Shown here one piece after another: positions 13,181 through 58,498 of a DNA stretch of 64,000 nt (the stretch's first letter is position 1; the number at the start of each line of letters is the position of its first letter). A program made the translations under genes and the position numbers. Below the pieces are notes generated by a model. The model had not been told where the DNA came from, did not search any database, and saw nothing but the letters and a program-made list of their open reading frames with translations. Location: NCBI GenBank assembly GCA_028687545.1, contig JAQTZZ010000002.1, forward strand, positions 74,087-138,086. Direction: 5' to 3'. The DNA comes from Candidatus Wallbacteria bacterium. Its GTDB lineage: Bacteria > Muiribacteriota > JAQTZZ01.

Positions 13181-13214
13181 AAAAAAAGGGCACGGTTTCC
13201 CGTGCCCTTTTGGT
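13181..13214 (-). terminator. Strong rho-independent terminator (bidirectional hairpin) immediately 3' of giant gene A
   Basis: The sequence is AAAAAAAGGGCACGG-TTTC-CCGTGCCCTTTT. On the minus strand the hairpin is followed by TTTTTTT. The same element occurs again at 24402..24434. Confidence 0.8.
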
Positions 13215-16200
13215 TCACTCATGATTGTATTCGATTCTGGTCTTCTGTCTCTTCAGCAGTTCGTCCATCAGTTTGGTGTCCAGGATCCAGAAAGGCACCA
13301 GGATCGCCCTGGTATTGTTGGACTTGTCTGTGACAGAGATCTTGAGCAGTTCAGGTTCAAGCGGCAGTTGCTCGAAATCAAGGCGTGTGCTTTCCTTGAA
13401 CTGGGTGAAGAAGATGGCATGCTTATGGCCTGTGTTGTCTGTCATGATCGGGATATTCTCAGTCGGGAGATTGACCCAGGCCCCGTCCGGATCGGTAACG
13501 CCAGGCGTTTTCTTGACTTCGATCTTCACATTACCGGCGAAAGTCACAGGGAATACTCCATTGTGTCCCTCGATCAGGTTGTGGGAGATGAAAGGTGCAT
13601 TTTCAATACAATCGACATTGTCGCGGGCTTTGACTTCAAAAGCCACTCTCATGTCCTCGTCAATGCCTAGCACATTCGGCTTATTCGGAGTCAGGTCGCC
13701 AATGTACTGGCCGAAATCGAAAAACTCCGCTTTCATGTAGTTGTTGCCTGGCATCGGCTGATCCACGGCATCGAGGGAATACACATTCCTGTCGATGAAA
13801 TAGTCGAAGATGTCACGTGGCTTATCGACAGTCTCGTCATTCCCTTCCACCAGCCTGGGCTCATTTTTCCCGTCGCCTGTGACTATGATCCGGATCTTTC
13901 CGCGCTCGCTGGTGACGCTGTTGAGCGGATTCAGGCCTGTTCCGCCCCATTCCGTATTATCCACAAGGGCAGTCAGGCTGGGAGTGGTGGAATTGTCGAT
14001 TTTAATGCCGTTCATGCCCTCGTCCACGAATCCATATCTGGGATCCAGAAAGATGTCGTCCCTGTCATCGTCATTCACCTGATACTTGATCACCCTGCTC
14101 AGTTTGGGTATCACGACAGTGAATGACAGTTCAGGCGGGTCATTGTCGTGCACCATCAGCTTGGCAGCGTATTTCCAGGGGGCATTGGCATCGTCGCCTG
14201 CAGTTTCAGGCGGAATGATCGGAGTGCCGTTGGAATTGAGATAATTGCCCTTGCCGTCTGTGCCGTAAACATACCAGTAAAGGTAACTGGCATAGTTTTC
14301 CGGCAAAGGACCAACAGTTCTCTTTGGATTGTAAAGAAAGAGGAATCTGTGCATGTATTTCTGAAGTCCGCCTGTTTTCCCAGGCTGACTTACATGGTAG
14401 TAACTGGAATCATCAGGCGGATTATCCACTGAGCCGATAATACGGGTAAAATCGTCATCCAGCTTGCCGTCAACGTTCAGGTCTACCAGAGAACCTTCGG
14501 GTATCTGGACGCTCATGTCCAACTGGCTCTGGTAATCAGTGTAAACCGAGTCCACAGTGCGGTCCTGCAGCTGATCGAAACGCCTGTTCCCTGAGTTGGC
14601 GGTCGGGTTTTCGATCTGGACTCTGAGCTTGAAATCATCGGGCTTCAGCGCCACATTGGGATTGTTGTCCAGGACCACATACTGGATTTCCCTTGGGAAG
14701 AGGTCGGCTGTGGTGCCGCCGTCCGCGTAATCGTCAGTGACGTAATAATAAAGCGCAGGTCCTTCTTTATCCACGACTTCGATCTGATACCCGAAATCCT
14801 TGGAACCCGGGGTCCCGGTATCAATATCGTGATAGCTGGTATGCCTTGGCGTATCGCAGGTCAGGTCATAGTAATTAAACTTTGGGGGCACTACGTCCGG
14901 GACCTGGTCGCGGGGTTCCCATTTCACGCATGGGTAATCGAAATCCAGCCAGAGGTAATAGCAGGCGAATTTGGGATCAGGTGCGCCGGACAGAGGCATC
15001 ACAAATTTATACAGATTCTGCTGCGTCGTGAGATTCAGCTTGACTTTGAACACATGCCTGTCCGCAAAGTTCGGAGGATTCCAGGTGTCCCAGGCCACTG
15101 TCTCATCCAGAGGCCCGTCAGTGTTGTTCCTGTATTCCACCACTGTGTCGTCTGACAAATCTCCTTTTTCGAACATGGTCTGTGTCCAGCGGTAAATGGG
15201 GGTGCCTGAGCTGTTGTCGAAGATGAATGCACCTACCCACCACTGGTACTTGATCTCGCCCCAGTCCTTTTTCCTGTCGAGATGGGAGTTGCCTGCGCCA
15301 GGGTCGAGCTGCGATGTGCCGAAGATCCCGATCCCGTTATCATTGCTGACAGGAACATCAATCCCGTTATAGGGATAGTCCTCCAGAGTGGTCTTCTGGT
15401 CGCTGTTGATGTCAACTGATCCGCCTGGGACCAGGTCGCCCGGGTTGCCTGTCAGACAGGCGGCCTTATCATTGACGTCAGTGGCCAGAGAAGGTTTGTA
15501 GTTGTTGGGTTTAAGCCCGTCGCCTTTGTAGTTCCAGACGCCCACTCCGTCATAACTGTCCACCAGGGAAGTGGATCCGGCATCATGCAGATGGAACTGG
15601 TAATACTTGCCCCACTGCACATAGAATGTGGCGTAAATCGGGACTCCGGTATCCTCGTCCACCTGCTGCGGGGCATGGATGTTGACCTGGTGGATGTAAC
15701 CCGGGGTAGGAGCGTTTTCATTGCCCACATGTATCACATGCTCTGCGATGAAATTCATGTCTGAATTCTTCCAGGCAGCCGGAGGAGTTGATGGCGCATA
15801 TCCGCCCGGGAGGAAGCATTTCGCGTCTCTCCACTCGAACGGGCAGGAGCTGGAAGTGGCCATGGCGTAACCAAGAGATTTGCGCTGGTCGATGAAAGAG
15901 GGGAATTTCATTGTCTCATAATTGTAGCGCTGATATACGGCCAGAACCTGGACTTTGTAAATGCCGCGGTCTCTGAAGAGAATCTTGAATCCCTTGCGCT
16001 CGATCTGAGCCGCACCATTCACCATGTATAGATAATTGTCAGGCTCATTGGTAGCTGAGACGTCGATCTTGACGCCCTGTCCGGCACTGGTGAGCACATT
16101 CTGGGGCTGCCCGTCGATCGGAGGATTGACAAACGGATCGACTTTTTCGCCTGTGATTTTATTGCCGAGAGTGGCATTGGGCATCCAGAATTCATACAGT

Positions 16201-17530
16201 ACATTGCTGCTCTGGAGCACATCGATCACCCGGATATAATAGATCAGGCCTGGGCCTGCGTTCGTGCCCTCGATCAGTCCGATCGGGTAGCCGCCTGTGA
16301 ATCCGTTGGAACTCAAAGGCTGATGTGTCGAAAGCGTTGATTCGCCGTAATTGTTGTTTTTATTCAGGTAGTCACCGGCAAAAGAAGGCGGGTTTTCAAT
16401 GTAAAATGTATAAGCCAGGTCTTCTTTCAGATAGTCATCATTGGGTTTAGCCGGATCTTTGGGAGGCAATGGATTCGTGTTGTTGGAATCAGGATCCATG
16501 CAGACAAAATCCACATGTGAGATGTCATCGCCCGCAATCGGAGGGCCGGCTATGTTTACGACTGCAATGTCTGTATCTATTGCTCTCACATCCACCATGC
16601 TTGTGCTCATGTCGAGCACTGCGGGAGAACTGAAAAACGGGTCCCAGACCAGAGTGTTTCCCGCGTACCAGCCATAATCCTGGCGCTTCCAGATGTTCCC
16701 GCCCAGAAAGATCTTGAACATCAGGTAATGGTCTGCGATGTTGTTTTCCTTGACCCTCCAGACACTGTAATACCAGCCGTCGGAAAAGACGGAAGTCCAT
16801 CTTTTGGTCAGCTTGGCCTGCTGTGGAGTGGGAGGCGGTTCGCCAGGCTGTGGAACATATGTGTAATCATTGATGTCTTTGACCTGGTCCGGCGGCCACA
16901 AGGTATTGGGATCCCATCCCTGGGGTTTCAATTCCTGGGTTTTTATCCCATAGTAAACATTGCCCTGTCCGTCTGCAGCGATGGCTTCGATCGTACCCGG
17001 CACATTGTTCGGGATGGAAAAAGTCACTGAAGTGCCTGCTGTCAGTCCGATCATCTCGGTTCGATTGAAGGACCTGAGGTCAGGCTGCAGTTCGTACTTG
17101 ATGCCGCCCAGGCCGTCCCACTGGTCTGCCACGCACATGTCTATGGCATCAGAGTAATAAAACCAGTCTTCCTGGCTGTTCTTGGTGGCAGCTCCGATGG
17201 AGGAAGTATGGTCAGGCAGATTCACCTGCTGAGCGCTGCCGTCCATGGCAGTAGGCTTCGCGTATGACAGGCCGTCTACATCGGTTTCCACAGTTTCCAT
17301 CTGTCCGATTTTCAAGATCTCATCCGGAACAGTGGTATAGAAATATCTGCGGCCAGTGCAGCTCACTGCTATGTCCATCCTGCCTGTGGGAGAAACGTTG
17401 GGCTGGTCATTATAGTTTTCACCAGGAGGAGAGTCTCCGCAGGATGCGCCCAGAGCCTGATAGGTATAGTTGCACTGGAACAGATGGAAAACCTGCTCGA
17501 ATGCGTTGAACTGACTGGAATAAGGATCCC
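13181..17530. repeat. High-identity duplicated tract copy A (~97-98% nt identity to 24402..28770)
   Basis: Direct by-eye comparison of the first ~400 nt after the terminator shows only scattered substitutions. Protein identity is above 90% across the corresponding translation. Confidence 0.6.
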
Positions 17531-18299
17531 AGGAACCTGCGACAGCGATCGGCCTGTGAGGGTCATTGTAATAATCGTCCCAGAAAGTGAGGTCCCGCTC
17601 CTCGTAATTCTTGATCAGGGAATGCTGGCCACGTCCGTAATGGCCCCAGCCAATGTTATCGTTGCAGTGCATGAAAGTGAAGTAACCGTTGGGGAGCTGG
17701 GCAAAGCAGTTGGTGTCTATGTCGCAGCCATTGGGCACCAGGAGATTGCCGAAATCGTCTTTCCAGAAATTGGTGTTGAAATCAAAGGCCGAGCCCCATT
17801 GTCCCCCGCTTACCCACCATCTCCAGCCGTGGACATTGAATCCGTGTCCGAAATGGTTGTTCCAGTTGTTGGGATAAGAGCAATAGATCCATTGCCCGTT
17901 GATACCCATCACTACCCTGAAAAAAGTCCGGTTGACCAGAGTGGGGACATCGAATCCTTCAGCGGTCAGCCTGGCCAGCTCCGCAGGGGTGACGCGGGGC
18001 GGCCCGAAAGCAGTAGTCTTGTTGCAGAGGAGGTATACGTTGCTGAACATGTCGACAGCGATCGCCTTGCCTGAATCGCCCGGCATGAAGAGCCGTTTGG
18101 CCTTGGGGTCATTTCCCTGGTCCACAATAATGGTCTCTGTGCTCTCATGGAAAGGACCGTAAACTCCCTTGTTGATTCCATCGCCGACCAGAACATAGAC
18201 ATCGCCGTTGCGCTTGTAGATATCCTTATTGGAATATGTCGCTACTGCAAAAACCGCACTGCCTGCCATTAAGAGCAACAACAGAAAGATTTTCCTCAT
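13215..18299 (-). CDS. Giant secreted protein, paralog A (1694 aa), unknown function. A hypervariable cassette near the N-terminus sits in an otherwise conserved body.
   Basis: The reading frame is intact and a signal peptide MRKIFLLLLLMAGSAVFAVA is present. I recognised no known catalytic or sorting motif. It is about 90%+ identical over its C-terminal ~1400 aa to the ORF at 24434..29638. Confidence 0.7.
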   Translation of the reverse strand: MRKIFLLLLLMAGSAVFAVATYSNKDIYKRNGDVYVLVGDGINKGVYGPFHESTETIIVDQGNDPKAKRLFMPGDSGKAIAVDMFSNVYLLCNKTTAFGPPRVTPAELARLTAEGFDVPTLVNRTFFRVVMGINGQWIYCSYPNNWNNHFGHGFNVHGWRWWVSGGQWGSAFDFNTNFWKDDFGNLLVPNGCDIDTNCFAQLPNGYFTFMHCNDNIGWGHYGRGQHSLIKNYEERDLTFWDDYYNDPHRPIAVAGSWDPYSSQFNAFEQVFHLFQCNYTYQALGASCGDSPPGENYNDQPNVSPTGRMDIAVSCTGRRYFYTTVPDEILKIGQMETVETDVDGLSYAKPTAMDGSAQQVNLPDHTSSIGAATKNSQEDWFYYSDAIDMCVADQWDGLGGIKYELQPDLRSFNRTEMIGLTAGTSVTFSIPNNVPGTIEAIAADGQGNVYYGIKTQELKPQGWDPNTLWPPDQVKDINDYTYVPQPGEPPPTPQQAKLTKRWTSVFSDGWYYSVWRVKENNIADHYLMFKIFLGGNIWKRQDYGWYAGNTLVWDPFFSSPAVLDMSTSMVDVRAIDTDIAVVNIAGPPIAGDDISHVDFVCMDPDSNNTNPLPPKDPAKPNDDYLKEDLAYTFYIENPPSFAGDYLNKNNNYGESTLSTHQPLSSNGFTGGYPIGLIEGTNAGPGLIYYIRVIDVLQSSNVLYEFWMPNATLGNKITGEKVDPFVNPPIDGQPQNVLTSAGQGVKIDVSATNEPDNYLYMVNGAAQIERKGFKILFRDRGIYKVQVLAVYQRYNYETMKFPSFIDQRKSLGYAMATSSSCPFEWRDAKCFLPGGYAPSTPPAAWKNSDMNFIAEHVIHVGNENAPTPGYIHQVNIHAPQQVDEDTGVPIYATFYVQWGKYYQFHLHDAGSTSLVDSYDGVGVWNYKGDGLKPNNYKPSLATDVNDKAACLTGNPGDLVPGGSVDINSDQKTTLEDYPYNGIDVPVSNDNGIGIFGTSQLDPGAGNSHLDRKKDWGEIKYQWWVGAFIFDNSSGTPIYRWTQTMFEKGDLSDDTVVEYRNNTDGPLDETVAWDTWNPPNFADRHVFKVKLNLTTQQNLYKFVMPLSGAPDPKFACYYLWLDFDYPCVKWEPRDQVPDVVPPKFNYYDLTCDTPRHTSYHDIDTGTPGSKDFGYQIEVVDKEGPALYYYVTDDYADGGTTADLFPREIQYVVLDNNPNVALKPDDFKLRVQIENPTANSGNRRFDQLQDRTVDSVYTDYQSQLDMSVQIPEGSLVDLNVDGKLDDDFTRIIGSVDNPPDDSSYYHVSQPGKTGGLQKYMHRFLFLYNPKRTVGPLPENYASYLYWYVYGTDGKGNYLNSNGTPIIPPETAGDDANAPWKYAAKLMVHDNDPPELSFTVVIPKLSRVIKYQVNDDDRDDIFLDPRYGFVDEGMNGIKIDNSTTPSLTALVDNTEWGGTGLNPLNSVTSERGKIRIIVTGDGKNEPRLVEGNDETVDKPRDIFDYFIDRNVYSLDAVDQPMPGNNYMKAEFFDFGQYIGDLTPNKPNVLGIDEDMRVAFEVKARDNVDCIENAPFISHNLIEGHNGVFPVTFAGNVKIEVKKTPGVTDPDGAWVNLPTENIPIMTDNTGHKHAIFFTQFKESTRLDFEQLPLEPELLKISVTDKSNNTRAILVPFWILDTKLMDELLKRQKTRIEYNHE

Positions 18300-18403
18300 T
18301 GTTCCGCTCCCCCCTGAATTTTATTTACAGTCAGATTTTTTTCCGTTTTGTGCACTATCAATGTTTACTCCGATTTTTTGGAATCGTTTCATTTGCTGCC
18401 CGG

Positions 18404-19366
18404 TCAGGACTTGAGATTATCCTTCAGGTACTGCAGGACTGCAGCCTTGAATTTGGGATTTATTTCACTCGCTCCGATCAGGGATTCAACAACTTCGTAA
18501 GTCAGGTCCTGGCTTTCGCTCTGTATGAATTCGGAAAAGTCGGGCCTGGCCATTGGAGAACTTTTTTTCGCGATCAGTTCCGAAAGATAAGACATGGTAA
18601 AGGTCTTGATCTTGTCTTCAGGGCTCATTTTCTGGCCTTCTGCCAAATTAGGCTCTCCCACAGACATCATGTTCACCCGCTCGTAATTGGCAGTGAGTTT
18701 ACCGGAATCTGAAGATCCGGATGGGAGCAGATTCTCATAAACCCCGCTGTTCAGGACCAGCTTGATCCCTTTTTTATCTGCAACTGTTTTCAGGGCAGTC
18801 TTGATTTCAGCAAGAATCCTGGAAGTTAACTGGGCAGCTTCCCCGGTGGTGTAGAATTCCACTGAAGATTCCGACTGCTTTAACTGCAATTGCTCACTGT
18901 TCAGTTTCAGAGTTTCCAGTTCCAGTGAATCCAGCTTGTCCTGATATGGCTTCATGGCACGCTCAGCCTCGTCGTGAAACTGGAGATTCAGCTTGGCAAT
19001 GTCCACTTTGCCGGTCATTTTTTTCTGCTGCTCTTCAAAGAGGCTGCTTTTCATGCCGAGAATCCTGCTGCAGGTCTGGTTTTTCTCAGCTGCCAGATCA
19101 TTCAGCCTCTTGGCAATTTCTTCATTCCGCGTCTTATTCCTGGCTTTCAGCCTGTCTTTTTCGACGCTGCGGGTTTTCCTGGCTTCTTCAATCGCACTGA
19201 CAGTCAGTTTTCCCTCTACCGGACGCAGAAAAGTCCCTGCTTCAGGATAATAATAAAGAATTGTCATGGGATGATAATAAAAAGCCAGGTTCAGATTGAT
19301 GGTTCCGACAGGTTCAGCGAGCAGGGTTGAACACACCATCAACAATGTCAGGACTGAATATTTCAT
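18404..19366 (-). CDS. Skp/OmpH-like periplasmic chaperone paralog (320 aa, coiled-coil rich), upstream of giant gene A
   Basis: It has a signal peptide. A post-signal motif EPVGTINLNLAFYYHP resembles the Skp N-terminal beta-strand. A long K/E/Q-rich coiled coil follows. The segment VADKKGIKLVLNS resembles the Skp C-terminal AKKGY..ILD segment. The 4-bp ATGA overlap with the upstream ORF suggests translational coupling. Confidence 0.45.
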   Translation of the reverse strand: MKYSVLTLLMVCSTLLAEPVGTINLNLAFYYHPMTILYYYPEAGTFLRPVEGKLTVSAIEEARKTRSVEKDRLKARNKTRNEEIAKRLNDLAAEKNQTCSRILGMKSSLFEEQQKKMTGKVDIAKLNLQFHDEAERAMKPYQDKLDSLELETLKLNSEQLQLKQSESSVEFYTTGEAAQLTSRILAEIKTALKTVADKKGIKLVLNSGVYENLLPSGSSDSGKLTANYERVNMMSVGEPNLAEGQKMSPEDKIKTFTMSYLSELIAKKSSPMARPDFSEFIQSESQDLTYEVVESLIGASEINPKFKAAVLQYLKDNLKS

Positions 19367-20235
19367 CTTGCTTCCTCCTTATTAAGGGCATTAACGAGCA
19401 TTTCCTGCAGTTCAGAAGCGAATTTATATTTTTCAAAAATTCCCTGCAAAATCTCCAGGGAATAATCAGCTCCACCATAGACGATGAATTTATCCCTGTC
19501 AGTCAAGCTGTTTAACCTGAATTTAAATCCCTGGCTCATGAAATATGAAAATCTCTGCCTTTCCTGTTCAGTAAAACTGTCTTTGTCCAGGGCGCACAGA
19601 TCGTTGATATGGTAAATCACAGAAGCGGCAGAATTGATACTTCCGGGATAAAATATGATCCTCTCGACCTGATGCGCCTTTTTAACCTTGCTGATCCCTT
19701 CATTAATATCCGTCCAGATCTGTTTTCTGATTTTTTTCTGCTCTTCCTGCGTCGCTGAATATGCTGAAAAACTCTTCATGATTTTATCGATTTTTCCGCC
19801 TACTTCAATCAGTTTCTTCAAAAGTACACTCTGCAGGGCAAGATATTTTTTCTCTTGTTCTGAACTTGGTTTTCCTGTTTCAGTTTTTCTGTATTGATTT
19901 ACAAGGTCTGATCTCTGAATTTCGATCCCCTGTTTCTCCTTGATCAGGGTATTAAGCTCTTTTTTCAGTTCATTGTCTCCCTGCTCGGAATTTGCGATGA
20001 AATCCCTGCGGACATAGGCAAGGCTGGCCTGGCTGAATTCGTTGTTTTTCAGCGATTTGAGCGAAATGAACCCGTCAGTGTCAGGCAGATAGAAGAAAAC
20101 TGTGTAAGGGTGGAGCCTGTAAAGCAAAGCCAGATCCACACTGCCGAAATCAGCACAGGCTGGAAAGATGACAGCCAAAACAGCGGCGAAAAAGAGCCTT
20201 TTCATATTTTCCCTTTCCGACTGAGTCATGCTCAT
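19363..20235 (-). CDS. Second Skp/OmpH-like chaperone paralog (290 aa), first gene of the operon
   Basis: It has a signal peptide. The motif DFGSVDLALLYRLHPY parallels the N-terminal motif of the neighbouring paralog. A coiled-coil region and a KKAHQVERIIFYPGS segment follow. Confidence 0.4.
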   Translation of the reverse strand: MSMTQSERENMKRLFFAAVLAVIFPACADFGSVDLALLYRLHPYTVFFYLPDTDGFISLKSLKNNEFSQASLAYVRRDFIANSEQGDNELKKELNTLIKEKQGIEIQRSDLVNQYRKTETGKPSSEQEKKYLALQSVLLKKLIEVGGKIDKIMKSFSAYSATQEEQKKIRKQIWTDINEGISKVKKAHQVERIIFYPGSINSAASVIYHINDLCALDKDSFTEQERQRFSYFMSQGFKFRLNSLTDRDKFIVYGGADYSLEILQGIFEKYKFASELQEMLVNALNKEEAR

Positions 20236-20309
20236 TTCATGCCGACAAAGATACAGAAACTGAAATGCGTCAATAATTTCGGCATTTCATGTATCAGAAA
20301 ACTGACTAA

Positions 20310-20338
20310 ATTCTATCCGCGATTCTATGATCTGTCAA
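20310..20338 (-). promoter_or_regulatory. Sigma70-type promoter (TTGACA-N17-TAGAAT) for the Skp-like/Skp-like/giant operon A
   Basis: On the minus strand, TTGACA (plus-strand 20333..20338) is followed by a 17-nt spacer GATCATAGAATCGCGGA and then TAGAAT (plus-strand 20310..20315). The whole ~65 bp element is conserved upstream of operon B at 31640..31707. Confidence 0.5.
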
Positions 20339-20437
20339 CTAAATCTGGCATGTTTTACTGCCAATTCCGGGGGCAGTCAGGATCATGGCAGATCCTTCAG
20401 ATCTCTGTCATGGTATAATTAAAATTTAAAGGCTTCA

Positions 20438-21700
20438 ATGTTATGTTTGAAATGCAGGAGATCTCCAGTGCCTGGTAAGGTCAAAAATCTTTTTCTGCTG
20501 CTCACTTTTGTGACTGTTCTGCATTTTATCGTGTTTTCCTGGCTAATGAATGTCGTCCCCCTGCTGAGCGGGATTTCCGGTTATGACTGGCCGACTATGC
20601 TGCTCCTGCTTCTCGGAAATCTCTGGTTTGTTTTCTGCGGCTTGAAGTATCAGGAAAACCAGGAAGACTTCCGCTGGAGCCTGTATCTTTCCGGCTACCT
20701 GCTCCTGCTGGTTTTTCTCTTCCTGCTGAATCGAAGACTTCTGTTGTTCCTGATGGGGGTCTTTCTCTATTCCGGGATGTATCACAACAGGAATCGGACA
20801 GTTTATCTCTTCATTTTCCTGTTTTCTCTCATTGCATTCAGCGCTTACTGGGTTTCAGGATGTCTGCTCTTATCTTTCATCTACGCTGTTTTAAGCGGGC
20901 TATGGGAACGCCTGAGCAGCGGGTTTGAAAAAGTGCTGGCCTTGTCGGGCGGACTGATTCTGCTGCTGGTGATTTTCCCGCTGCTTAACCTGCTTTTCCA
21001 GTATCAGCCCCAGACCCTGATCAATGCCTGCAGTCCGGAAATATGGAATGCCATGCAACTGAGTGCAGTCACAGCATTGATCTCGACTCTGATCATTCTA
21101 GTACTGGGTGTCCCGCTTGCCTATATCATGGCCAGGAACGATTTCAGGCTGAAAGCCGCAGTCGATGCTTTGATCGACCTGCCGATCATGGTTCCTCAGA
21201 CAGCGGCAGGAATCGCCATTCTGGTCCTGGTCGGCCCTAAAACACCTCTGGGAGACTTTTTAGCTCAGCAATTCGGAATGTCTTTTGCCGGAACAGCCAT
21301 CGGCATTATCTGCTGCCAGATCTTTGTCAGTTTCCCATTTCTGGTACGGTCTGCGATCAATGCCTTTGAAGCGGTGGACGCGAAATTCGAAAATGCCAGC
21401 CGCTCGCTGGGTGCATCTGCAGCCCTGACTTTTTTCCGGATCACCCTGCCACTTGCCGCGCCTGGGATTTTCAACGGCTGCATCCTGAGTTTTTCCAGGG
21501 CTCTCTCCGAAGCAGGCAGCCTGATGATCGTAGCTTACAGGCCGAGCACGATCCCGATCATGATCGATGACACATTCAATCAGTTCGGCATGCGGGAGGC
21601 TGCCCCGATCACAGTAGTGTTTGTGGGCATCTGCTTCTGGGGGTTCATTTCCCTGAAGTGGCTTTATGAAAACCAGAAGAGAAGGCTGAAACAAGCTTGA
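20438..21700 (+). CDS. ABC transporter permease, molybdate/tungstate/sulfate (CysTW/ModB/WtpB) type, with an extra N-terminal membrane domain of about 170 aa
   Basis: The C-terminal half carries the BPD-transporter fold and EAA-loop region ENASRSLGASAALTFFRITLPLAAPGI. The N-terminal 170 aa are hydrophobic. The true start codon is uncertain. Confidence 0.7.
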   Translation: MLCLKCRRSPVPGKVKNLFLLLTFVTVLHFIVFSWLMNVVPLLSGISGYDWPTMLLLLLGNLWFVFCGLKYQENQEDFRWSLYLSGYLLLLVFLFLLNRRLLLFLMGVFLYSGMYHNRNRTVYLFIFLFSLIAFSAYWVSGCLLLSFIYAVLSGLWERLSSGFEKVLALSGGLILLLVIFPLLNLLFQYQPQTLINACSPEIWNAMQLSAVTALISTLIILVLGVPLAYIMARNDFRLKAAVDALIDLPIMVPQTAAGIAILVLVGPKTPLGDFLAQQFGMSFAGTAIGIICCQIFVSFPFLVRSAINAFEAVDAKFENASRSLGASAALTFFRITLPLAAPGIFNGCILSFSRALSEAGSLMIVAYRPSTIPIMIDDTFNQFGMREAAPITVVFVGICFWGFISLKWLYENQKRRLKQA

Positions 21701-21716
21701 TGTTACTGGAGGAAAT

Positions 21717-22661
21717 TTGAACAAATTCTTCGACGAACCGTTTCTGCCGGTGATGGGAAGCTGGTTCGACGGTTTTCCGTTAGCCCTGATCTCCCTGCTT
21801 CTGATAGCAGGGATGATATTCATGATAAATCTGCGGAATGCATGGCTGCAGCGGGCGAGGCGGGCCGTCCAGACCATCTCCCTGCTGGTTTTTGCCCTTT
21901 TCGTGTATCAATGCCTCTGCCTGATGCGGCTTTTCATGTTCGGGCTCGGCGAAATCGGAAAAAACGACCTGGTTTCATTCTCCCAGCTGAGCCTGTTTGC
22001 CGTAGTCGGAGGATTCTCGTTTTTTGCGGGACGCATTTTCTGCGGCTGGGTCTGCCCGCTTGGATTTCTGCAGGAAATAGTGAATTCAATCTCCCCGGTG
22101 AAAGGAAAAGCTGCTAAACTGATCCTCCTAACAGCATTGTTCTGCACAGCCCTGGTCACCATGCTCAGAACCTTGCCGGCTAATGAATTTGCAGTGGAAT
22201 ATGTCACTGCTGTCTTCGCCTTTCTGATGATGATCAGCCTTTTCCTGCTCCTGATCAGCCCGGCCCTGGAGCAGGCTCTGATGAACTTCCGTTATGTACC
22301 GATGTTCGTATATAGTGCGCTGAGCCTCTTGGGTATTTATTTCAGTGACGCCTGGTGCTCGCTCTATGGCTTTGAGGCAGACACCTCCTCACTGATCTCG
22401 CTCTGCATTGTCCTGTCAGCCTCGTTTATCGTGGCCACTCCCTGGTGCAGATTCATGTGCCCGACAGGTCTGTTTCTGGCTCTTATCGGAAAAGACGCTT
22501 TCTACAGGCTTAAGCTGGGCCATCTGCCTCCGATACACGAACCATGCAGGCAAGCCTGTCCGTCAGGCGCGATCAGTGAGCAGGGTATAGACTGCCTGCT
22601 CTGCATAAGCTGTGGAACCTGCAAGGAAACCTGCGGTTCGAAGTACGGTTTTTTCAAGTAA
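21717..22661 (+). CDS. NapH/MauN/FixG-family 4Fe-4S polyferredoxin-like integral membrane protein
   Basis: The diagnostic CxxCP motifs FCGWVCPLGFLQE and WCRFMCPTGLF are present. The C-terminal tail CRQACPSGAI...CLLCISCGTCKETC is a ferredoxin-type cluster. Multiple TM helices are predicted. Confidence 0.7.
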   Translation: MNKFFDEPFLPVMGSWFDGFPLALISLLLIAGMIFMINLRNAWLQRARRAVQTISLLVFALFVYQCLCLMRLFMFGLGEIGKNDLVSFSQLSLFAVVGGFSFFAGRIFCGWVCPLGFLQEIVNSISPVKGKAAKLILLTALFCTALVTMLRTLPANEFAVEYVTAVFAFLMMISLFLLLISPALEQALMNFRYVPMFVYSALSLLGIYFSDAWCSLYGFEADTSSLISLCIVLSASFIVATPWCRFMCPTGLFLALIGKDAFYRLKLGHLPPIHEPCRQACPSGAISEQGIDCLLCISCGTCKETCGSKYGFFK

Positions 22662-22672
22662 TAAATCTGGCT

Positions 22673-23605
22673 CTATTTTAAGATTTCAAGCGGGACGTTT
22701 TTTGATCCGCCAGGTGCAGGATCAAAGAAATTCTTCTCAACCAGGTCTGAGCGTGACAGGAGCATCCTTCCAAATTTCAATGCTGTTCCGCGGTCAGGGG
22801 CATCATTCGGAATTGTGAACGCATACCTGATAGGCCCGCCTGTCAGGGAGACCGTATTTTTACCGCTGCCTGTCACTTCAGTGGTAACCTGGGAATAGAA
22901 CTGGGCCTCCATAGTGCTTCCCATATTGATCCTGTCAGGCAGCCGGATGAACTTGAGATGATACTTCTTGGCGGATGATTCATAGATGAAGGCATAATCC
23001 AGCGAATAGTTCTGAAGCCTGGGAACAAGCTGAGACTCAGTCTGGCAGACATTGTCAGGTCGGCAATTGGCTTTAAGCATAACAGCGATGCTTCTGCCTC
23101 CCAGTTTCTCCCGATAGACTATGTCTGCAAGCTCCCAGCAGAACAGGGTGCGGTATCCAGCAGGTTCAAGGTTGGGATCGACACGCCCGAATTTCACATC
23201 CGGCCTGGCAAGGATTTCATACCAGTTGTCAGCTGTCAGCTCTGTTCCATATTGAGAGTGCTCTCCGTATGCGACAGTCATCCTGCTTCCTGCAAAATCA
23301 GCATACCAGTCTGTGAATTCAGGGATCAGCAGTCGTTCAATCACCACATAATCCGCCACTGCGATGACGTCAGCTCTGCGTTTCAGTTCAGTAATCTTCC
23401 GGCAGGCGGCAAAACTGCCTGAAGGCTCAAGCACTATCTCCACACCCGGTTCTCCTGCCTCGAACTCAGCTTTCATGTCCTTCATCAGAGCGGTCAGGCT
23501 GCTGGCATGAAAGACAACCAGTTTTTTCTTTTCTCCGCATCCCTGGCAGAGAGTGAAAAAAGCCAGAGTCAGCAGAAGCAGCAGGCGTTTTCCCGAAAGG
23601 TTCAT
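22673..23605 (-). CDS. Periplasmic substrate-binding protein of a molybdate/tungstate (ModA/WtpA/TupA-like) ABC transporter
   Basis: It has a signal peptide. The N-terminus LVVFHASSLTALMKDMKAEFE...GVEIVLEPSGSFAACRKI is typical of ModA/WtpA-type PBPs. It is a paralog (~55% aa identity) of 31772..32716. Confidence 0.65.
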   Translation of the reverse strand: MNLSGKRLLLLLTLAFFTLCQGCGEKKKLVVFHASSLTALMKDMKAEFEAGEPGVEIVLEPSGSFAACRKITELKRRADVIAVADYVVIERLLIPEFTDWYADFAGSRMTVAYGEHSQYGTELTADNWYEILARPDVKFGRVDPNLEPAGYRTLFCWELADIVYREKLGGRSIAVMLKANCRPDNVCQTESQLVPRLQNYSLDYAFIYESSAKKYHLKFIRLPDRINMGSTMEAQFYSQVTTEVTGSGKNTVSLTGGPIRYAFTIPNDAPDRGTALKFGRMLLSRSDLVEKNFFDPAPGGSKNVPLEILK

Positions 23606-23707
23606 AATTACCCCTTGAAATCATTATCAGTATGACATTTTAGCCTCTGCCATATCAAGTAGTAATTTGGAGGTGTTTTCCTGTATAATTGATTTCACAA
23701 GGCCAAC

Positions 23708-24403
23708 ATGACGATGAAGATATTTCTGACCCTGTTTTTTTTTCTGCTTTTTTCTGGAACTTCGAATTCATGTTCAGCCTATAATTTCAGAAACTCGACC
23801 TTCAACGACATCAAGCGAGCCTCAGCAAAATCGTTTTTCAAGATCATTTCCAGCATCAATGGATTCGAAAAATGCGGCACAGCCGAGCTTGAGTCCCTGA
23901 AGTCCCGCTGGAGCGATGTCTCAGTATCCTGGACCCTTTTCCAGACCAAAGTGGAAAACTGGCTCAGGCTGATCCCTGATGAAACTTCCGTGAAAGACTG
24001 GAATGCCGCGTTGGGAGAATTTCAGCGGATTATCGGAAAAATACACGGAGAAATTGCAGCAGGAAGCGGGGAAACAGCGCTCAGCGAGATGACTGGACTC
24101 AAGATCGATCTGCTGCTTTTTTTTCATTTCAATCCCCTGGATACATCCAGGGATGCGGCAAAAACCGGGGACCGCGGTACTATGATCATAGTTTTTTCGG
24201 ATGTATCCTGGTTTAAAGATGAACTGCCGCCTGAACTTGTGTTGTTTCAAAAGAAAATCGGGGAACTGTACAAAAATTTTGATGAGCCGCACAGGAAATC
24301 CTTCCTGGAATGGAAAGAAGATCACAGAATTGTTCTGAAAAAAGTGCTGGCTGATTATTTCGAACATCACAGCTGGCTGAGACGGTCAGGGGAAAATCCT
24401 TAA
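23708..24403 (+). CDS. Small secreted protein of unknown function (231 aa), paralog of 32713..33375
   Basis: It has a signal peptide. The conserved core LFQTKVENWLRLIPDE is shared with the copy-B paralog. Confidence 0.45.
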   Translation: MTMKIFLTLFFFLLFSGTSNSCSAYNFRNSTFNDIKRASAKSFFKIISSINGFEKCGTAELESLKSRWSDVSVSWTLFQTKVENWLRLIPDETSVKDWNAALGEFQRIIGKIHGEIAAGSGETALSEMTGLKIDLLLFFHFNPLDTSRDAAKTGDRGTMIIVFSDVSWFKDELPPELVLFQKKIGELYKNFDEPHRKSFLEWKEDHRIVLKKVLADYFEHHSWLRRSGENP

Positions 24404-24434
24404 AAAGGGCACGGTTTCCCGTGCCCTTTTGGTT
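24402..24434. terminator. Bidirectional rho-independent terminator between the small secreted protein gene (+) and giant gene B (-). It is the same sequence as 13181..13214.
   Basis: The sequence AAAAAGGGCACGG-TTTC-CCGTGCCCTTTT lies between two convergent stop codons. Confidence 0.8.
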
Positions 24435-27400
24435 CACTCATGATTGTATTCGATTCTGGTCTTCTGTCTCTTCAGCAGTTCGTCCATCAGTTTGGTGTCC
24501 AGGATCCAGAAAGGCACCAGGATCGCCCTGGTATTGTTGGATTTGTCTGTGACAGAGATCTTGAGCAGTTCAGGTTCCAGCGGCAGTTGCTCGAAATCAA
24601 GGCGTGTGCTTTCCTTGAACTGCGTGAAGAAGATGGCATGCTTATGGCCTGTGTTGTCTGTCATGATCGGGATATTCTCAGTCGGGAGATTGATCCAGGC
24701 CCCGTCCGGATCGGTAACGCCAGGTGTTTTCTTGACTTCGATCTTCACATTACCGGCGAATGTCACAGGGAACGCTCCATTGTGTCCCTCGATCAGGTTG
24801 TGGGAGATGAATGGCTGGTTCTCGATGCAGTCCACATTATCCCTGGCCTTGACTTCGAATGCCACTCTCATGTCCTCGTCTATGCCTAGCACATTCGGTT
24901 TGTCAGGAGTCTTGTCTCCTATGTACTGACTGAAATCGAAAAACTCCGCTTTCATGTAGTTGTTACCCGGCATCGGCTGATCAATTGCATCGAGAGAATA
25001 TACATTCTTGTCGATAAAGTAATCGAAGATGTTCAGGGGTTTGTCGACAGTCTCGTCATTCCCATCAACCAGCCTGGGCTCATTTTTCCCGTCGCCTGTG
25101 ACTATGATCCGGATTTTTCCGCGCTCGCTGGTGCCGTTGTTAAGCGGATTCAGTCCGGTCCCGCCCCATTCCGTATTATCCACAAGGGCAGTCAGGCCTG
25201 GAGTGGTGGAGTCGTCGATTCTGGTGCCGCCCATGCCTTCATCCCCGAATCCATATTTCGGTTCCAGGAAGATGTCATCCCTGTCGTCATCCGCCACCTG
25301 ATACTTGATCACTCTGTTCAGTTTGGGAATTACGACAGTGAATGACAGTTCAGGCGGGTCATTGTCGTGTACCAGCAGCTTGGCAGCATACTTCCATGGG
25401 GCAATCGGATCTACTGCCTCACCTGCAGCTTCCGGAGGTATGATCGGAGTGCCGTTGGAATTGAGGTAATTGCCCTTGCCGTCTGTGCCGTAGACATACC
25501 AGTAAAGGTAACTGGCATAGTTTTCAGGCAGCGGACCCACGGTGTCTTTTGGGTTGTATAGATAGAGGAATCTATGCATGTATCTCATGAGTCCGCCCAA
25601 TTTTCCGGGCTGGCTCACATGGTAGTAACTGGAATCATCAGGAGGGGTATCCACTGACCCGATCAGAAGTGCGAAATCATCATCTATCTTGCTGTCACCG
25701 CTCAGGTCTACCAGGGAACCTTCAGGGATCTGGACGCTGGTATCAAGCTGGCTCTGGTAATCAGTGTAAACCGAGTCCACTGTGCGGTCCTGCAGCTGGT
25801 CGAAACGCCTGTTCCCTGAGTTGGCGGTCGGGTTTTCGATCTGGACCCTGAGCTTGAAATCATTGGGCTTCAGTGCCACATTGGGATTGTTGTCCAGGAC
25901 CACATACTGGATTTCCCTTGGGAAGAGGTCGGCTGTGGTGCCGCCGTCCGCGTAATCATCAGTGACGTAATAATATAGAGCCGGGCCCTCTGTATCCACG
26001 ACTTCGATCTGATACCCGAAATCCTTGGAATTCGGGGAGGCTGTGTCTATGTCATGATAGCTGGTATGCCTCTTGGTATCGCAAGTCAGGTCATAGTAAT
26101 TATACTTTGGAGGTACGACATCAGGAACCTGGTCGCGGGGTTCCCATTTCACGCACGGGTAATCGAAATCCAGCCAGAGATAATAGCAGGCGAATTTGGA
26201 ATCAGGTGCGCCGGACAGAGGCATCACAAATTCAAACAGCTTCTGCTGGGGTGTGAGATTCAGCTTGACTTTGAATACTTGCCTGTCCGCGAAGTTCGGA
26301 GGATTCCAGGTGTCCCAGGGCACTGTCTCGTCCAGCGGCCCATCTGTATTGTTCCTGTATTCCACCACTGTGTCGTCTGACAAATCTCCTTTTTTGATCA
26401 TGGTCTGTGTCCAGCGATAGATGGGCGTACCTGAACTGTTATCAAAGATGAAGGCACCCACATACCAGTGGTATTGGATTTCGCCCCAGTCCTTTTTCCT
26501 GTCTAGATGGGAGTTACCTGCGCCAGGGTCGAGCTGAGATGTGCCGAAGATTCCGGTGCCATTATCGTTGCTGACAGGAACGTCAATCCCATTATAGGGA
26601 TAGTCCTCCAGAGTGGATTTTCCGTCACTGTTGATGTCAGCGCTTCCGCCTGCGACCAGGTCGCCCGGGCTGCCGGTCAGACAGGCAGCCTTGTCGTTGA
26701 TGTCAGTGTTCACAGAAGGTTTGTAATTGTTGGGCTTCCGGCCGTCTCCGCCTGGCGATGGCTTGTCGTAGTTCCAGATGCCCACACCATCATAACTGTC
26801 CACTTTGGATGTGATCGATGCGTCTCCTAAATGGTACTGGAAATACTTGCCCCACTGCACATAAAATGTGGCGTAAATAGGGACTCCGGTATCCTCGTCC
26901 ACCTGCTGCGGGGCATGGATATTGACCTGATGGATGTAACCCGGGGTAGGCGCATTTTCGTTGCCAACATGCACCACGTGTTCTGCGATGAAGTTCATAT
27001 TGGATTTTTTCCAGGCATCCGGAGGATTTGACGGAGTGTAACCTCCGGGCAGGAAGCAGGCAGCGCTTCTCCAGTCAATTGTGGAAAAACAGGAGGTGGC
27101 CATGGCATAACCGAGGGAAACGCGCTCATCAATGAAAGAAGGATATTTCATGGTTTCATAATTATAGCGCTGATATACTCCCATCACCTGGATTTTGTAA
27201 ATGCCGCGGTCCCTGAAGAGAATCTTGAATCCCTTGCGCTCGATCTGGGGCTGGCCGCTGACCAGATACAAATAGTTGTCAGGCTCGTTGGTTACCTTGA
27301 TGTCAATCTTCACGCCCTGGCCGGCATTGGTCAGCACATTCTGGGGCTGGCCGTCGATCACAGGAGTGACAGTCGGATCTACTTTCTCACCTGTGACTTT

Positions 27401-28770
27401 GTTGCCGCTCGTGGCATTTGGCATCCAGAACTCATAAAGCACATTGTTGCTCTGCAGCACATCGATCACCCGCACATAGTAAATCAGACCAGGCCCTGCA
27501 TTCGTGCCCTCGATCAGTCCGATCGGGTAGCCGCCTGTGAATCCGTTGAAATTCACCGGCTGATGGTTCTTGAGTGTCTGTTCTCCGTAATTGTTGTTTT
27601 TGTTCAGCCGGTCGCCTGCGAAGGAAGGCGGGTTTTCAATGTAATAATCGCACCATTGGTCTTCAGGAACATAGTCGTCATTGGGTTTGGTCGGATCCTT
27701 GGGCTGGATCGGATTCATGCTTCCGTCAGTGAGCGCGAAATCCACATGTGATATGTCGTCGCCTGCGATCGGAGGTCCTGCGATATTGACCACAGCAATA
27801 TCCAAATCCAGTTTTCTAACATCGATCCCTGAACTCAGGTCCAAGACTGCTCCATGACTGAACTGAGGATCCCAGACCACCTGGTTTCCTGCCATCCAGC
27901 CATAATCCTGGCGCAGGTATAAATTGCCACCGATGAAAATCTTGAACATCAGGTAATGGTCTGCAATATTGTTTTCCTTGACCCTGTATACACGGTAATA
28001 CCAGCCGTCAGACAGTACGGAGACCCATCTTTTTGTCAGAGCTGCCTGTGCAGGTGTGGGGGGAGGATCACCGGGCAGCGGAACATAGGTGTAATCCTGC
28101 AAGTTCTTGATCTGATCAGGAGGCCAGGCAGTGTCCGGATTCCAGCCTGCAGGTTTCTGTTCCTGGGTCCTGATTCCATAATAAATATTCCCGTTCCCGT
28201 CGGCTGCGATGGTTTCGATTGTACCTGGAATTGTGGCAGGAATTGAGAAATTCATCGTATTGTCCTCAGTGGGGCTTCCTGAGAGGCCTCCGCTGGGGTC
28301 GATCTGGTAACCGCCGATCATCTTGGAGCGATTGAAAGAGCGGAGGTCAGGCAATAGTTCGTATTTGATGCCGCCCAGCCCGTCCCACTGGTCGCAGACA
28401 GCCATTTGAGGGGATTCCGAATAATAAAACCAGTCAGAGCTGCGGTCCTTGGTAGCTGCGCCGATGGAGATCGTTCTGTCAGGAAGGTTGCACTGGACGA
28501 AAGCGGCAGTCATGGCAGTAGGCTTCATATAGCCAATTCCCTGGGCATCCGTTTCCACTGTTTCCATCTGGCCGATCTTCAGGATTTCGTCTGGAATCGT
28601 GGTATAGAAATACCGGCGGCCTGTGCAGCTCACTGCGATGTCCATGTGGCCTGTGGGGCTGACGATCGGCTGTTTGTCATAGTTTTCTCCCGGAGGGGAA
28701 TCGCCGCAGGATGCTCCCAATGCCTCATAAGAGTAATTACATTGAAACAGGTGAAAAACCTGTTCAAATG
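24402..28770. repeat. High-identity duplicated tract copy B
   Basis: See the matching tract at 13181..17530. Confidence 0.6.
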
Positions 28771-29638
28771 CGCTGAATTGCCCGGAATATGGGTCCCATG
28801 TTCCTGCAACAGTAATCGGCCGGTGACTGTCGTTATAATAATCATCCCAGAAGGTCAGGTCCCGTTCCAGATAATTATCGAGTCTGGCAAACTGGGAACA
28901 CATGAAGGAAACAGCATAATAATGCTGGACATGCATCGCAGTCTGGTAACCATTAGGCAGAATCGCATGGTTATTTGTATCAAAGCCATAGCCGTTAGGC
29001 ACCAGCAGATTTCCGAAATCGTCCTTGAAAACAGGCCCGCCATAGGTATGGGCGGCAATGAACAGAGGCGGGGCTACTGCGCCGCCCCAGAAGTCTCCGT
29101 ATGTCGAAAATCCGCATTGCGGCCAGCGCAGGCATCTGTTCTGATAATTATCGTAATAATGGCCGAAGTGGGTGCCACTGCCTCCACCAAGATTCCACCA
29201 GTTGACTCCATAGCCGGCATACAGCCACTCTCCGTTCGGCTGCATCACACAACGGTAAAAGTTCCTGCCGATCAGAATTGCAGGATCGTAACCTTCTGCA
29301 GTAAGCCTAGCCAGCTCAGCGGGTGTGACGCGCGGAGTCTGGAAATCCGTTGTCTTGTTGCAGAGCAGGTAGACATTGTTGAACATGTCGACAGCGATCG
29401 CCTTGCCGGAATCTCCGGGCATGAAAAGACGCTTGGCCTTGGGGTCTGAACCATTGTCCACGATGACTGTCTCTGAGCTTTCAGTGAAAGGCCCGTAAAC
29501 GCCTTTGTTTAGCCCGTCTCCGACCAGAATGTAAACCTGGCCGTTCCTTTTATAAATCTCGCTGTTGGCATAAGAAGGCGCACAATATCCGCTATAAACG
29601 ATTAGAAACAGGAGAAACAATACAAGGATTTTCTTCAT
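24434..29638 (-). CDS. Giant secreted protein, paralog B (1734 aa), unknown function
   Basis: It has a signal peptide MKKILVLFLLFLIVYSGYCA. The last ~60 aa are identical to paralog A, and the C-terminal 1400 aa are above 90% identical. The N-proximal segment is divergent. Confidence 0.7.
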   Translation of the reverse strand: MKKILVLFLLFLIVYSGYCAPSYANSEIYKRNGQVYILVGDGLNKGVYGPFTESSETVIVDNGSDPKAKRLFMPGDSGKAIAVDMFNNVYLLCNKTTDFQTPRVTPAELARLTAEGYDPAILIGRNFYRCVMQPNGEWLYAGYGVNWWNLGGGSGTHFGHYYDNYQNRCLRWPQCGFSTYGDFWGGAVAPPLFIAAHTYGGPVFKDDFGNLLVPNGYGFDTNNHAILPNGYQTAMHVQHYYAVSFMCSQFARLDNYLERDLTFWDDYYNDSHRPITVAGTWDPYSGQFSAFEQVFHLFQCNYSYEALGASCGDSPPGENYDKQPIVSPTGHMDIAVSCTGRRYFYTTIPDEILKIGQMETVETDAQGIGYMKPTAMTAAFVQCNLPDRTISIGAATKDRSSDWFYYSESPQMAVCDQWDGLGGIKYELLPDLRSFNRSKMIGGYQIDPSGGLSGSPTEDNTMNFSIPATIPGTIETIAADGNGNIYYGIRTQEQKPAGWNPDTAWPPDQIKNLQDYTYVPLPGDPPPTPAQAALTKRWVSVLSDGWYYRVYRVKENNIADHYLMFKIFIGGNLYLRQDYGWMAGNQVVWDPQFSHGAVLDLSSGIDVRKLDLDIAVVNIAGPPIAGDDISHVDFALTDGSMNPIQPKDPTKPNDDYVPEDQWCDYYIENPPSFAGDRLNKNNNYGEQTLKNHQPVNFNGFTGGYPIGLIEGTNAGPGLIYYVRVIDVLQSNNVLYEFWMPNATSGNKVTGEKVDPTVTPVIDGQPQNVLTNAGQGVKIDIKVTNEPDNYLYLVSGQPQIERKGFKILFRDRGIYKIQVMGVYQRYNYETMKYPSFIDERVSLGYAMATSCFSTIDWRSAACFLPGGYTPSNPPDAWKKSNMNFIAEHVVHVGNENAPTPGYIHQVNIHAPQQVDEDTGVPIYATFYVQWGKYFQYHLGDASITSKVDSYDGVGIWNYDKPSPGGDGRKPNNYKPSVNTDINDKAACLTGSPGDLVAGGSADINSDGKSTLEDYPYNGIDVPVSNDNGTGIFGTSQLDPGAGNSHLDRKKDWGEIQYHWYVGAFIFDNSSGTPIYRWTQTMIKKGDLSDDTVVEYRNNTDGPLDETVPWDTWNPPNFADRQVFKVKLNLTPQQKLFEFVMPLSGAPDSKFACYYLWLDFDYPCVKWEPRDQVPDVVPPKYNYYDLTCDTKRHTSYHDIDTASPNSKDFGYQIEVVDTEGPALYYYVTDDYADGGTTADLFPREIQYVVLDNNPNVALKPNDFKLRVQIENPTANSGNRRFDQLQDRTVDSVYTDYQSQLDTSVQIPEGSLVDLSGDSKIDDDFALLIGSVDTPPDDSSYYHVSQPGKLGGLMRYMHRFLYLYNPKDTVGPLPENYASYLYWYVYGTDGKGNYLNSNGTPIIPPEAAGEAVDPIAPWKYAAKLLVHDNDPPELSFTVVIPKLNRVIKYQVADDDRDDIFLEPKYGFGDEGMGGTRIDDSTTPGLTALVDNTEWGGTGLNPLNNGTSERGKIRIIVTGDGKNEPRLVDGNDETVDKPLNIFDYFIDKNVYSLDAIDQPMPGNNYMKAEFFDFSQYIGDKTPDKPNVLGIDEDMRVAFEVKARDNVDCIENQPFISHNLIEGHNGAFPVTFAGNVKIEVKKTPGVTDPDGAWINLPTENIPIMTDNTGHKHAIFFTQFKESTRLDFEQLPLEPELLKISVTDKSNNTRAILVPFWILDTKLMDELLKRQKTRIEYNHE

Positions 29639-29747
29639 TACTCCGCTCCCCCTATCGATAATTTTTCATCTTCTAGAGTATCCGTGCAATTTATTAGTAT
29701 TATTATTATATTACTTTCCTTAGTCGCCATTGTTTCGTCAGGCAGTG

Positions 29748-31570: not shown

Positions 31571-31671
31571 ATTTTTCCTTTCCGGAGGAGAAGTGATTTG
31601 TCCCCCTGATATGTAAATAAATCAAGGCCAAATAAAATCCCGGCATTTCCTGGATCTGGAAACTATCAGTA

Positions 31672-31700
31672 ATTTTATCCGCGATCCTGCTATCTGTCAA
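31672..31700 (-). promoter_or_regulatory. Sigma70-type promoter (TTGACA-N17-TAAAAT) for operon B
   Basis: On the minus strand, TTGACA (plus-strand 31695..31700) is followed by a 17-nt spacer GATAGCAGGATCGCGGA and then TAAAAT (plus-strand 31672..31677). The flanking sequence is conserved with copy A. Confidence 0.5.
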
Positions 31701-31771
31701 CTAAGCCCAAAGATAACTATTTACCAAATATTGTGGTCTCGGGTAAAAGATAATGTTAAACTTTAAACGGA

Positions 31772-34588: not shown

Positions 34589-34604
34589 CGGAGAAAAATC
34601 CCAG

Positions 34605-45761: not shown

Positions 45762-45776
45762 AATCCAGTCCTCTGT

Positions 45777-47185: not shown

Positions 47186-47194
47186 GATCGTCCC

Positions 47195-50441: not shown

Positions 50442-50456
50442 CCTCTGCCCCGTATG

Positions 50457-58497: not shown

Positions 58498-58498
58498 G

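Follow-up and report, generated by a model that had tools for sequence, protein, structure and literature searches.

Why do two giant genes that lie side by side in an uncultured bacterium resemble each other so much more closely at their 3' ends than elsewhere, and so much more closely than the genes around them? The question is raised by a stretch of 64,000 nucleotides (nt) of contig JAQTZZ010000002.1, referred to here as the window, which is part of a Candidatus Wallbacteria metagenome-assembled genome (MAG) derived from a short-read metagenome assembly. The window contains two direct tandem copies, units A and B, with a start-to-start spacing of ~11.2 kb, and each copy carries one giant gene (giants A and B; Table 1). 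The 3' two-thirds of these giants are younger than their N-terminal third, in at least two steps. We consider it likely that an old tandem duplication of ~11.2 kb was followed by at least two 3'-anchored gene-conversion events between the giants.

Each giant is the third and last gene of an operon that opens with the gene for a ~285-290-amino-acid (aa) exported coiled-coil protein and continues with that for a ~320-aa one. Both operons have a near-consensus promoter (TTGACA-17-TAGAAT or TAAAAT) and face a four-gene module whose products are an SBP_bac_11 binding protein, a secreted protein of 220/231 aa, a BPD_transp_1 permease and a NapH-like Fer4_5 membrane iron-sulfur protein; the order of the module genes differs between the two units. 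The six flanking paralog pairs share 44-55% aa identity, in line with the ~35-55% that a first-pass annotation of this DNA had reported, and their synonymous divergence (dS, Nei-Gojobori) ranges from 1.7 to saturated. The giants themselves are both intact open reading frames, 79% identical in aa overall and 80% identical in nt across a codon alignment.

Nested strata of divergence along the giant genes

BLASTN aligns the 3' part of the giants at 84.6% identity over 3864 nt (13183-17008 vs 24402-28234), followed by 76.6% over the adjoining 564 nt, with a further 261 nt at 79% near the 5' end. These values fall well short of the 97-98% over the 3' ~4.3 kb that the first-pass annotation had claimed. 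The protein, for which more than 90% identity had been announced over the C-terminal ~1400 aa, behaves in the same way: A and B are 70% identical over residues 1-610, 81% over 611-910, 89% over 911-1570 and 98% over 1571-1694. In windows of 50 codons, nt identity is mostly 0.81-0.90 across the C-terminal 1000 codons, and 0.98-0.99 is reached in the last two windows only, plus one internal window at 0.97. The overestimate arose because it was extrapolated from the sole ~98% tract, the one stretch that had been compared (13215..13600 vs 24434..24820). That stretch is indeed near-identical, as base-by-base alignment of 13183..13592 with 24402..24811 gives 8 mismatches in ~410 nt. Around nt 13593 in A, identity switches abruptly from ~77% upstream to ~98% downstream. 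The final 140 nt are a perfect match covering the stop codon, the spacer, the hairpin GGGCACGG-GAAA-CCGTGCCC, whose identity had been correctly noticed, and the T-run, right after which all similarity between A and B stops. The repeat formed by the 3' ends (D1) is 99% identical over 300 nt.

The longest perfect run between the giants comprises 105 coding nt, a length reached in 0 of 2000 shuffles, for which the mean maximum was 46; 8 mismatches in the last 375 coding nt, set against a background of 15%, have a probability of 3e-17. The asymmetry first described is thus real and beyond chance, but its magnitude was overstated, since only the last ~410 nt reach 98%. The reported collapse near the N-terminus was also recovered, with A residues ~131-240 dropping to 37-53% aa identity and carrying indels.

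Synonymous sites resolve this pattern into layers. In 100-codon windows, dS is 1.2-2.6 over codons 1-610, near saturation and like that of the six flanking pairs, 0.76-0.99 over codons 611-910, 0.42-0.62 over codons 911-1610 and 0.057 over codons 1611-1694, where the nonsynonymous divergence (dN) is 0. Likelihood segmentation on differences at codons encoding the same amino acid, with model choice by the Bayesian information criterion, selected three segments with breaks at codons 614/615 and 1569/1570 and synonymous-codon difference rates, from 5' to 3', of 0.48, 0.27 and 0.04. Fisher tests support the two breaks (4e-5 and 2e-8, respectively), and strata 1 and 2 differ with a chi-square P of 2e-38. 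An additional break near codon 910, which would define a fourth stratum, was not significant (p = 0.08) and was rejected. Within stratum 1 lie the signal peptide, the hypervariable region with its indels (residues ~131-240) and a beta-propeller predicted to have six blades; its 614/615 boundary falls at a linker that is rich in indels in the family alignment. The edges of the tracts are discrete, forming a mosaic instead of a smooth gradient, and synonymous sites give the affected segment a younger age than the remaining unit; both properties are those of concerted evolution.

A third operon copy from the same MAG (P0003, locus L001), consisting of 293-aa and 317-aa genes and a 1785-aa giant, served as outgroup. 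The C-terminal part is not intrinsically more conserved, since the aa identity of the giants to this outgroup is flat along the gene (0.47-0.50). The effective number of codons (ENC) is 46-51 and the GC content at third codon positions (GC3) is 0.57-0.68 across all strata. Because all three measures are flat, constraint and codon bias are excluded as the cause of the gradient. The distance between A and B relative to that separating either from the outgroup, d(A,B)/d(A or B, C), comes to 0.46 and 0.51 in the operon's two chaperone-like genes, 0.45 in giant residues 1-610, and 0.26, 0.13 and 0.02 in successive 3' segments. As the value of 0.45 matches those of the chaperone-like genes, the N-terminal third has exactly the age of the remainder of the unit and differs from its neighbours only in stronger constraint on the protein (70% vs 48% aa). 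The dN/dS ratio is low throughout, including 0.18 in the hypervariable region, where saturated dS precludes judging positive selection.

Probable gene conversion and competing explanations

Since the N-terminal third has the age of the unit and at least two younger steps follow in the 3' two-thirds, we infer gene conversion inside an old duplication. An ancestral unit of ~11.2 kb, comprising a giant, two Skp-like chaperone-type genes and the four-gene module, would have been duplicated in tandem long ago and would then have diverged to synonymous saturation, the giants' 3' two-thirds excepted. One or more older conversion events may have covered the region from codon ~615 to the terminator, which would since have diverged to dS ~0.5, and a recent event would account for the last ~410 nt including the terminator, at dS ~0.06. 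A short internal conversion tract at codons ~1184-1259 is probable as well: only 4 synonymous-codon differences occur among its 60 comparable codons, it contains an 83-nt perfect run, and a permutation scan gives p = 0.009. The N-terminal head, with its signal peptide, hypervariable loops and predicted propeller, would never have been homogenised.

The process may have been RecA-type conversion between direct repeats 11.2 kb apart, with the upstream end of the older tract halted by the diverged, indel-bearing linker just past the head. It could also be self-reinforcing, in that already-similar DNA would offer the better recombination substrate. A head at ~69% identity is likely too diverged to be a good substrate for homologous recombination. 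Selection, in turn, may preserve distinct ligand-binding heads on two giants that share their stalk and C-terminal tail, and may also purge conversions that erase the differences between the heads. Gene conversion from the 3' end within an ancient duplication was one of two explanations offered by the first-pass annotation, and it is the one favoured by the stepped dS, by an N-terminal third of the same age as its neighbours and by the failure of constraint and codon bias to explain the gradient.

It is important to note several points that weigh against this reading. No close relative with orthologous A and B loci was found among 5.8e9 proteins, the GTDB representatives and the JGI metagenomes; two metagenome scans for close relatives of A and B returned nothing, and the GTDB scan returned distant ones only (23-26% identity, plus one 43% fragment). 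The classical test of conversion, in which 3' parts should cluster by genome and 5' parts by locus, requires such orthologous loci. The recent tract extends to the very edge of homology at the terminator, so that its outer junction would have to fall inside the ~30-nt hairpin unless the event was one-sided. How many events took place is uncertain because the sub-step near codon 910 has p = 0.08. The sequence comes from a short-read MAG, in which the 140-nt perfect run has assembly-level support. Finally, the argument that selection maintains different heads on a shared stalk is interpretive, and the propeller comes from a moderate model.

Among the alternatives, an unlikely one is that horizontal transfer of a divergent foreign allele replaced the N-terminal head together with the neighbouring genes, the 3' part being simply young. 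Variability and indels peak in the N-terminal region across the family, and another Wallbacteria lineage, described below, has N-terminus-specific extra divergence between paralogs, both of which would suit such an exchange. However, the head (0.45) has the same relative age as the chaperone-like genes (0.46 and 0.51), the four accessory genes are also saturated, an import would have to span ~8 kb of the unit yet end inside the giant, and the 98% terminal tract and the internal patch would be left unexplained.

We give a little less credence to one recent copy-and-replace event, in which a paralogous locus that already existed received a single copy of the giant, or of its 3' 3.3 kb, and the later differences are ordinary divergence. 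That the giants are 79% identical in aa, against 44-55% for their neighbours, agrees with it, and the three-segment model can be read as one large tract plus noise. A single recent duplication does not fit, because a uniformly low dS would be expected across the tract: synonymous-codon difference is 0.27 over codons 615-1569 and 0.04 over codons 1570-1694 (Fisher P = 2e-8), the internal patch is near-identical too, and a dS of ~0.5 is not recent. The related proposal of the first-pass annotation, a recent giant-gene duplication that landed in old loci, fails on the near saturation of codons 1-614 and on a roughly ten-fold dS difference between codons 615-1569 and 1570-1694; its description of two near-identical scaffolds was likewise too strong for bodies at dS ~0.5.

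It is very improbable that the near-identical 3' ends result from repeat collapse or chimeric joining in the short-read metagenome assembly. The sequence does come from a MAG, its 140-nt perfect run is near typical maximum k-mer sizes, and Logan contigs break exactly at the repeat. Collapse, however, cannot produce the ~85% stratum, and because 8 positions differ, the terminal tracts are separate assembled paths. In an independent Logan assembly of the same run (SRR22315507), k=31 contigs L016 and L017 match window positions 21622-24431 and 13212-8634 at 100% identity, and both end inside the shared terminator (window 24431 and 13212), with a 30-nt overlap. Since these contigs match and end there, both flank-terminator junctions are confirmed and the repeat is a real read-graph branch point. 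The assembled order is, moreover, the only linear solution, because swapped joins close unit A into a circle.

Similarity of the 3' part held by purifying selection, codon bias or mRNA selection, with no recombination at all, is scarcely credible: the C-terminal tail motif PF.ILDTKLMDELLKRQK is conserved family-wide and dN/dS is low throughout, but the differences sit at synonymous sites, outgroup identity, ENC and GC3 are all flat, and the non-coding spacer past the stop and the terminator are identical too.

The giant protein family and its surroundings

The giants, for which exact-protein look-ups in the contig index returned no record, have no Pfam or NCBIfam domain match, and the family profile finds no PDB sequence match at E<=1. 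A profile search of 1.84 billion cluster representatives recovered only 31 relatives, ~1350-2100 aa long bar a few much shorter, probably partial, sequences; six distant members examined have no Pfam domains. GTDB representative genomes contain 13 loci, often two per genome, and the titled records are all Wallbacteria, UBP16 or unclassified MAGs.

The N-terminal head is predicted to form a six-bladed beta-propeller (YWTD / TolB / NHL-like); the model, of moderate quality (pLDDT 61), superposes on solved propellers, and Foldseek against the PDB gave no significant match. Unconverted stratum 1 would therefore comprise the signal peptide, the hypervariable loops and the modelled propeller head, ending at the indel-rich linker. 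The converted part is the beta-rich body and tail; an AlphaFold model of the C-terminal 529 aa, built on a 4-sequence alignment, has a pLDDT of 27 and gives no fold assignment for it. The family-wide C-terminal tail reads PF.ILDTKLMDELLKRQK...E-COOH here and ILHT.M.R.VIN.E.RRSE-COOH in a distant subfamily. In the window it lies at 13218..13300 and 24437..24520, and it is also present at loci L004-L013. This tail could be a sorting or anchoring signal, and it matches no known signal among those testable. In the hypervariable N-proximal region, self-BLAST and repeat searches found the A/B pairing only, with no template repeat, cassettes or tandem repeats, and variation there gave no sign of being of the diversity-generating-retroelement or silent-cassette type.

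A parallel exists in another Wallbacteria lineage, where L009 and L012, two paralogs of GWC2_49_35, were set against L013, which is the ortholog of L012 in UBA6123. Over the N-terminal ~425 residues, orthology is supported 101:28:30; the rest of the gene is star-like (155:136:99), with the same-genome grouping of L009 and L012 marginally ahead. Whereas the orthologs diverge evenly along the gene, the paralogs carry extra N-terminal divergence: their first ~425 residues are far more diverged than those of the orthologs, and the remainder is equally similar. This pattern of divergent N-termini and shared C-termini is noisy, but it is suggestive of a parallel with A and B, and it brings the pattern to two independent lineages. 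A tentative and rather doubtful extension is a family-wide design, in which multi-copy giants would share, through recombination, a stalk and a C-terminal tail (ILDT/ILHT...E-COOH), the tail might act as a common anchoring or export signal, and the propeller heads, each served by Skp-like chaperones of its own, would be kept separate as different specificities. If true, this would be a previously undescribed surface-protein system of a candidate phylum, its evolution structured by segmental concerted evolution.

The chaperone-like partners accompany the giants beyond the window: homologs of the 320-aa protein lie upstream of giants in L001, L008 and L011, and at the GTDB loci a weakly OmpH-like gene is again found directly upstream of the giant. 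With Skp these proteins share a signal peptide, a coiled coil and N- and C-terminal motifs. The window copies of the 290-aa and 320-aa proteins have no OmpH (PF03938) match, their homologs score 25.1 and 17.3 bits against an OmpH cutoff of 32.4, and hhalign against the genome's genuine Skp (50457..50981) aligned only a 17-column C-terminal motif (probability 6%). The label Skp-like thus denotes an apparent resemblance only. The two copies of the first operon gene are far more alike in a segment at their 5' end (20033..20345 vs 31398..31705; 85% nt identity over 189 nt), which takes in the -35/-10 promoter, the ribosome-binding site and ~50 initial codons, than over the rest of the gene. A second converted patch was considered here (20033-20219 vs 31398-31584, 85% nt) and rejected, as the outgroup is also conserved and the synonymous deficit has p = 0.07; the likeness is probably due to constraint rather than conversion.

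Neither accessory module contains a gene for an ATP-binding cassette (ABC) ATPase, the SBP_bac_11 gene is inverted in unit A, and the third giant locus, L001, has no accessory module. The shared terminator of giant B (window 24402..24433) abuts the stop of the convergent 231-aa gene, which ends at 24403, and this single hairpin probably terminates both convergent transcripts. The boundary of the duplication unit falls exactly at this terminator.

Right after unit B lies the gene for a PQQ/BamB-like beta-propeller protein of 437 aa (35569..36882, + strand), which has no counterpart after unit A. It is followed by genes for a 1595-aa HEAT plus TPR protein (36980..41767, + strand), with diverged tandem DNA repeats at 41000..41690 (~126-nt offsets, 70-74% identity), and for a 1127-aa HEAT-repeat protein (41846..45229). 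Downstream of giant A, a 753-aa protein and an M6 peptidase share a short repeated segment, 45% identical over 68 aa. An outer-membrane biogenesis cluster occupies 45222..63014 on the - strand, ~10-30 kb from the giant operons, and because of its presence the organism is taken to be a diderm with lipopolysaccharide.

Table 1. Features of the window discussed in the text (coordinates in window numbering).
Feature	Position	Strand	Remarks
Unit A	roughly 13183..24403		
Unit B	roughly 24402..35576		
Giant gene A	13215..18299	-	1694 aa; signal peptide
Giant gene B	24434..29638	-	1734 aa; P0001; NCBI 'hypothetical protein PHW04_01410'
Stratum 1, copy A	16458..18299	-	codons 1-614; ~69% nt identity to B; dS 1.2-2.6
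Stratum 1, copy B	27698..29638	-	codons 1-647
Stratum 2, copy A	13593..16457	-	codons 615-1569; ~85% nt; dS 0.42-0.99; 27% of same-amino-acid codons differ
Stratum 2, copy B	24812..27697	-	partner of 13593..16457
Stratum 3, copy A	13183..13592	-	codons 1570-1694 (125 codons), stop, intrinsic terminator hairpin; ~98%; dS 0.057
Stratum 3, copy B	24402..24811	-	partner of 13183..13592
Internal low-divergence patch, A	14523..14750	-	codons ~1184-1259; partner 25748..25975
320-aa exported coiled-coil protein, operon A	18404..19366	-	weakly OmpH/Skp-like; paralog 29748..30716, 48% aa
~280-290-aa exported coiled-coil protein, first gene of operon A	19363..20235	-	paralog 30713..31570, 46% aa
Operon B chaperone-like genes	29748..31570	-	322 aa and 285 aa
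Accessory module A	20438..24403	mixed	BPD_transp_1 permease (+), NapH-like Fer4_5 (+), SBP_bac_11 (-), 231-aa secreted (+)
Accessory module B	31772..35576	+	SBP, 220-aa protein, permease, NapH-like; 44-55% aa to A, dS saturated
M6 immune-inhibitor-A-like peptidase	5811-8858	-	1015 aa; downstream of giant A
753-aa protein	8959-11220	-	no known domain; downstream of giant A
5'-nucleotidase/metallophosphoesterase	11585-13114	-	downstream of giant A
LpxA-like	46427-47185	-	
LpxC-FabZ fusion	47195-48472	-	
LpxD	49410-50441	-	
Genuine OmpH/Skp	50457-50981	-	91.8 bits
BamA	51008-52687	-	Omp85 and POTRA domains
TamB-like	52708-56466	-	1252 aa
MlaD	56466-57827	-	
ABC ATPase	57766-58497	-	
LpxK	62004-63014	-	

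The main added value of this locus is an orphan giant-protein family and a mosaic that respects domains. The family has conserved chaperone-like partners, a predicted propeller head and a conserved tail, and it lies here near a BamA/TamB/Lpx cluster. In this pair, partial and nested gene conversion between two protein-coding paralogs of an uncultured phylum can be quantified cleanly, its strata dated and a boundary placed at a domain linker. Furthermore, assemblies can be expected to break at the shared 3' ends, which matters for the annotation and population genomics of Wallbacteria.

Relation to known cases of concerted evolution

The process itself is a known one, encountered here in a new gene family and in a weaker form than first claimed. 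The first-pass annotation had called the gradient unusual, which is too strong, as 3'-biased concerted evolution is documented for babA/babB and homA/homB of Helicobacter pylori. According to Pride & Blaser 2002, as reviewed in PMC3960876, the 3' segments of these genes undergo concerted evolution by RecA-dependent gene conversion within the genome, and their 5' or middle portion, which binds the ligand, remains divergent. The two systems are alike in being surface-protein paralogs of the same genome (for the giants, a predicted role) with concerted 3' parts, divergent 5' parts and a sharp-edged mosaic. The likeness is nevertheless one of working and not of membership, because there is no homology: the giants have no sequence or domain relationship to the Hop/Hom proteins and do not belong to them. 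In size, fold and setting the two also differ: a Hop protein of ~80 kDa carries a C-terminal beta-barrel, whereas the giants reach ~190 kDa and have their predicted beta-propeller at the N-terminus; the bab and hom loci lie scattered, whereas the giants sit in an 11.2 kb tandem duplication; and conversion between the giants would be old (bulk dS ~0.5) rather than an ongoing high-frequency switch.

Systems of cassette antigenic variation, such as Neisseria pilE/pilS, Anaplasma msp2 and Borrelia vlsE, use silent donors to convert the variable part of a gene at high frequency. Like the giants, they owe to conversion genes with constant and variable parts. In the giants, by contrast, both copies are complete and stand in promoter-bearing operons, it is the constant part that appears converted, and the window has no extra cassettes.

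A broader frame is provided by the 26 long-lasting cases of concerted evolution described among duplicated bacterial genes (Wang & Chen 2018, PMC6053082). In those cases, as in the giants, paralogs are more similar than the age of the duplication predicts, and the excess is ascribed to gene conversion. Most of those cases, however, concern entire core-pathway genes that are homogenised from end to end, whereas the giants show partial, nested strata in a lineage-restricted family.

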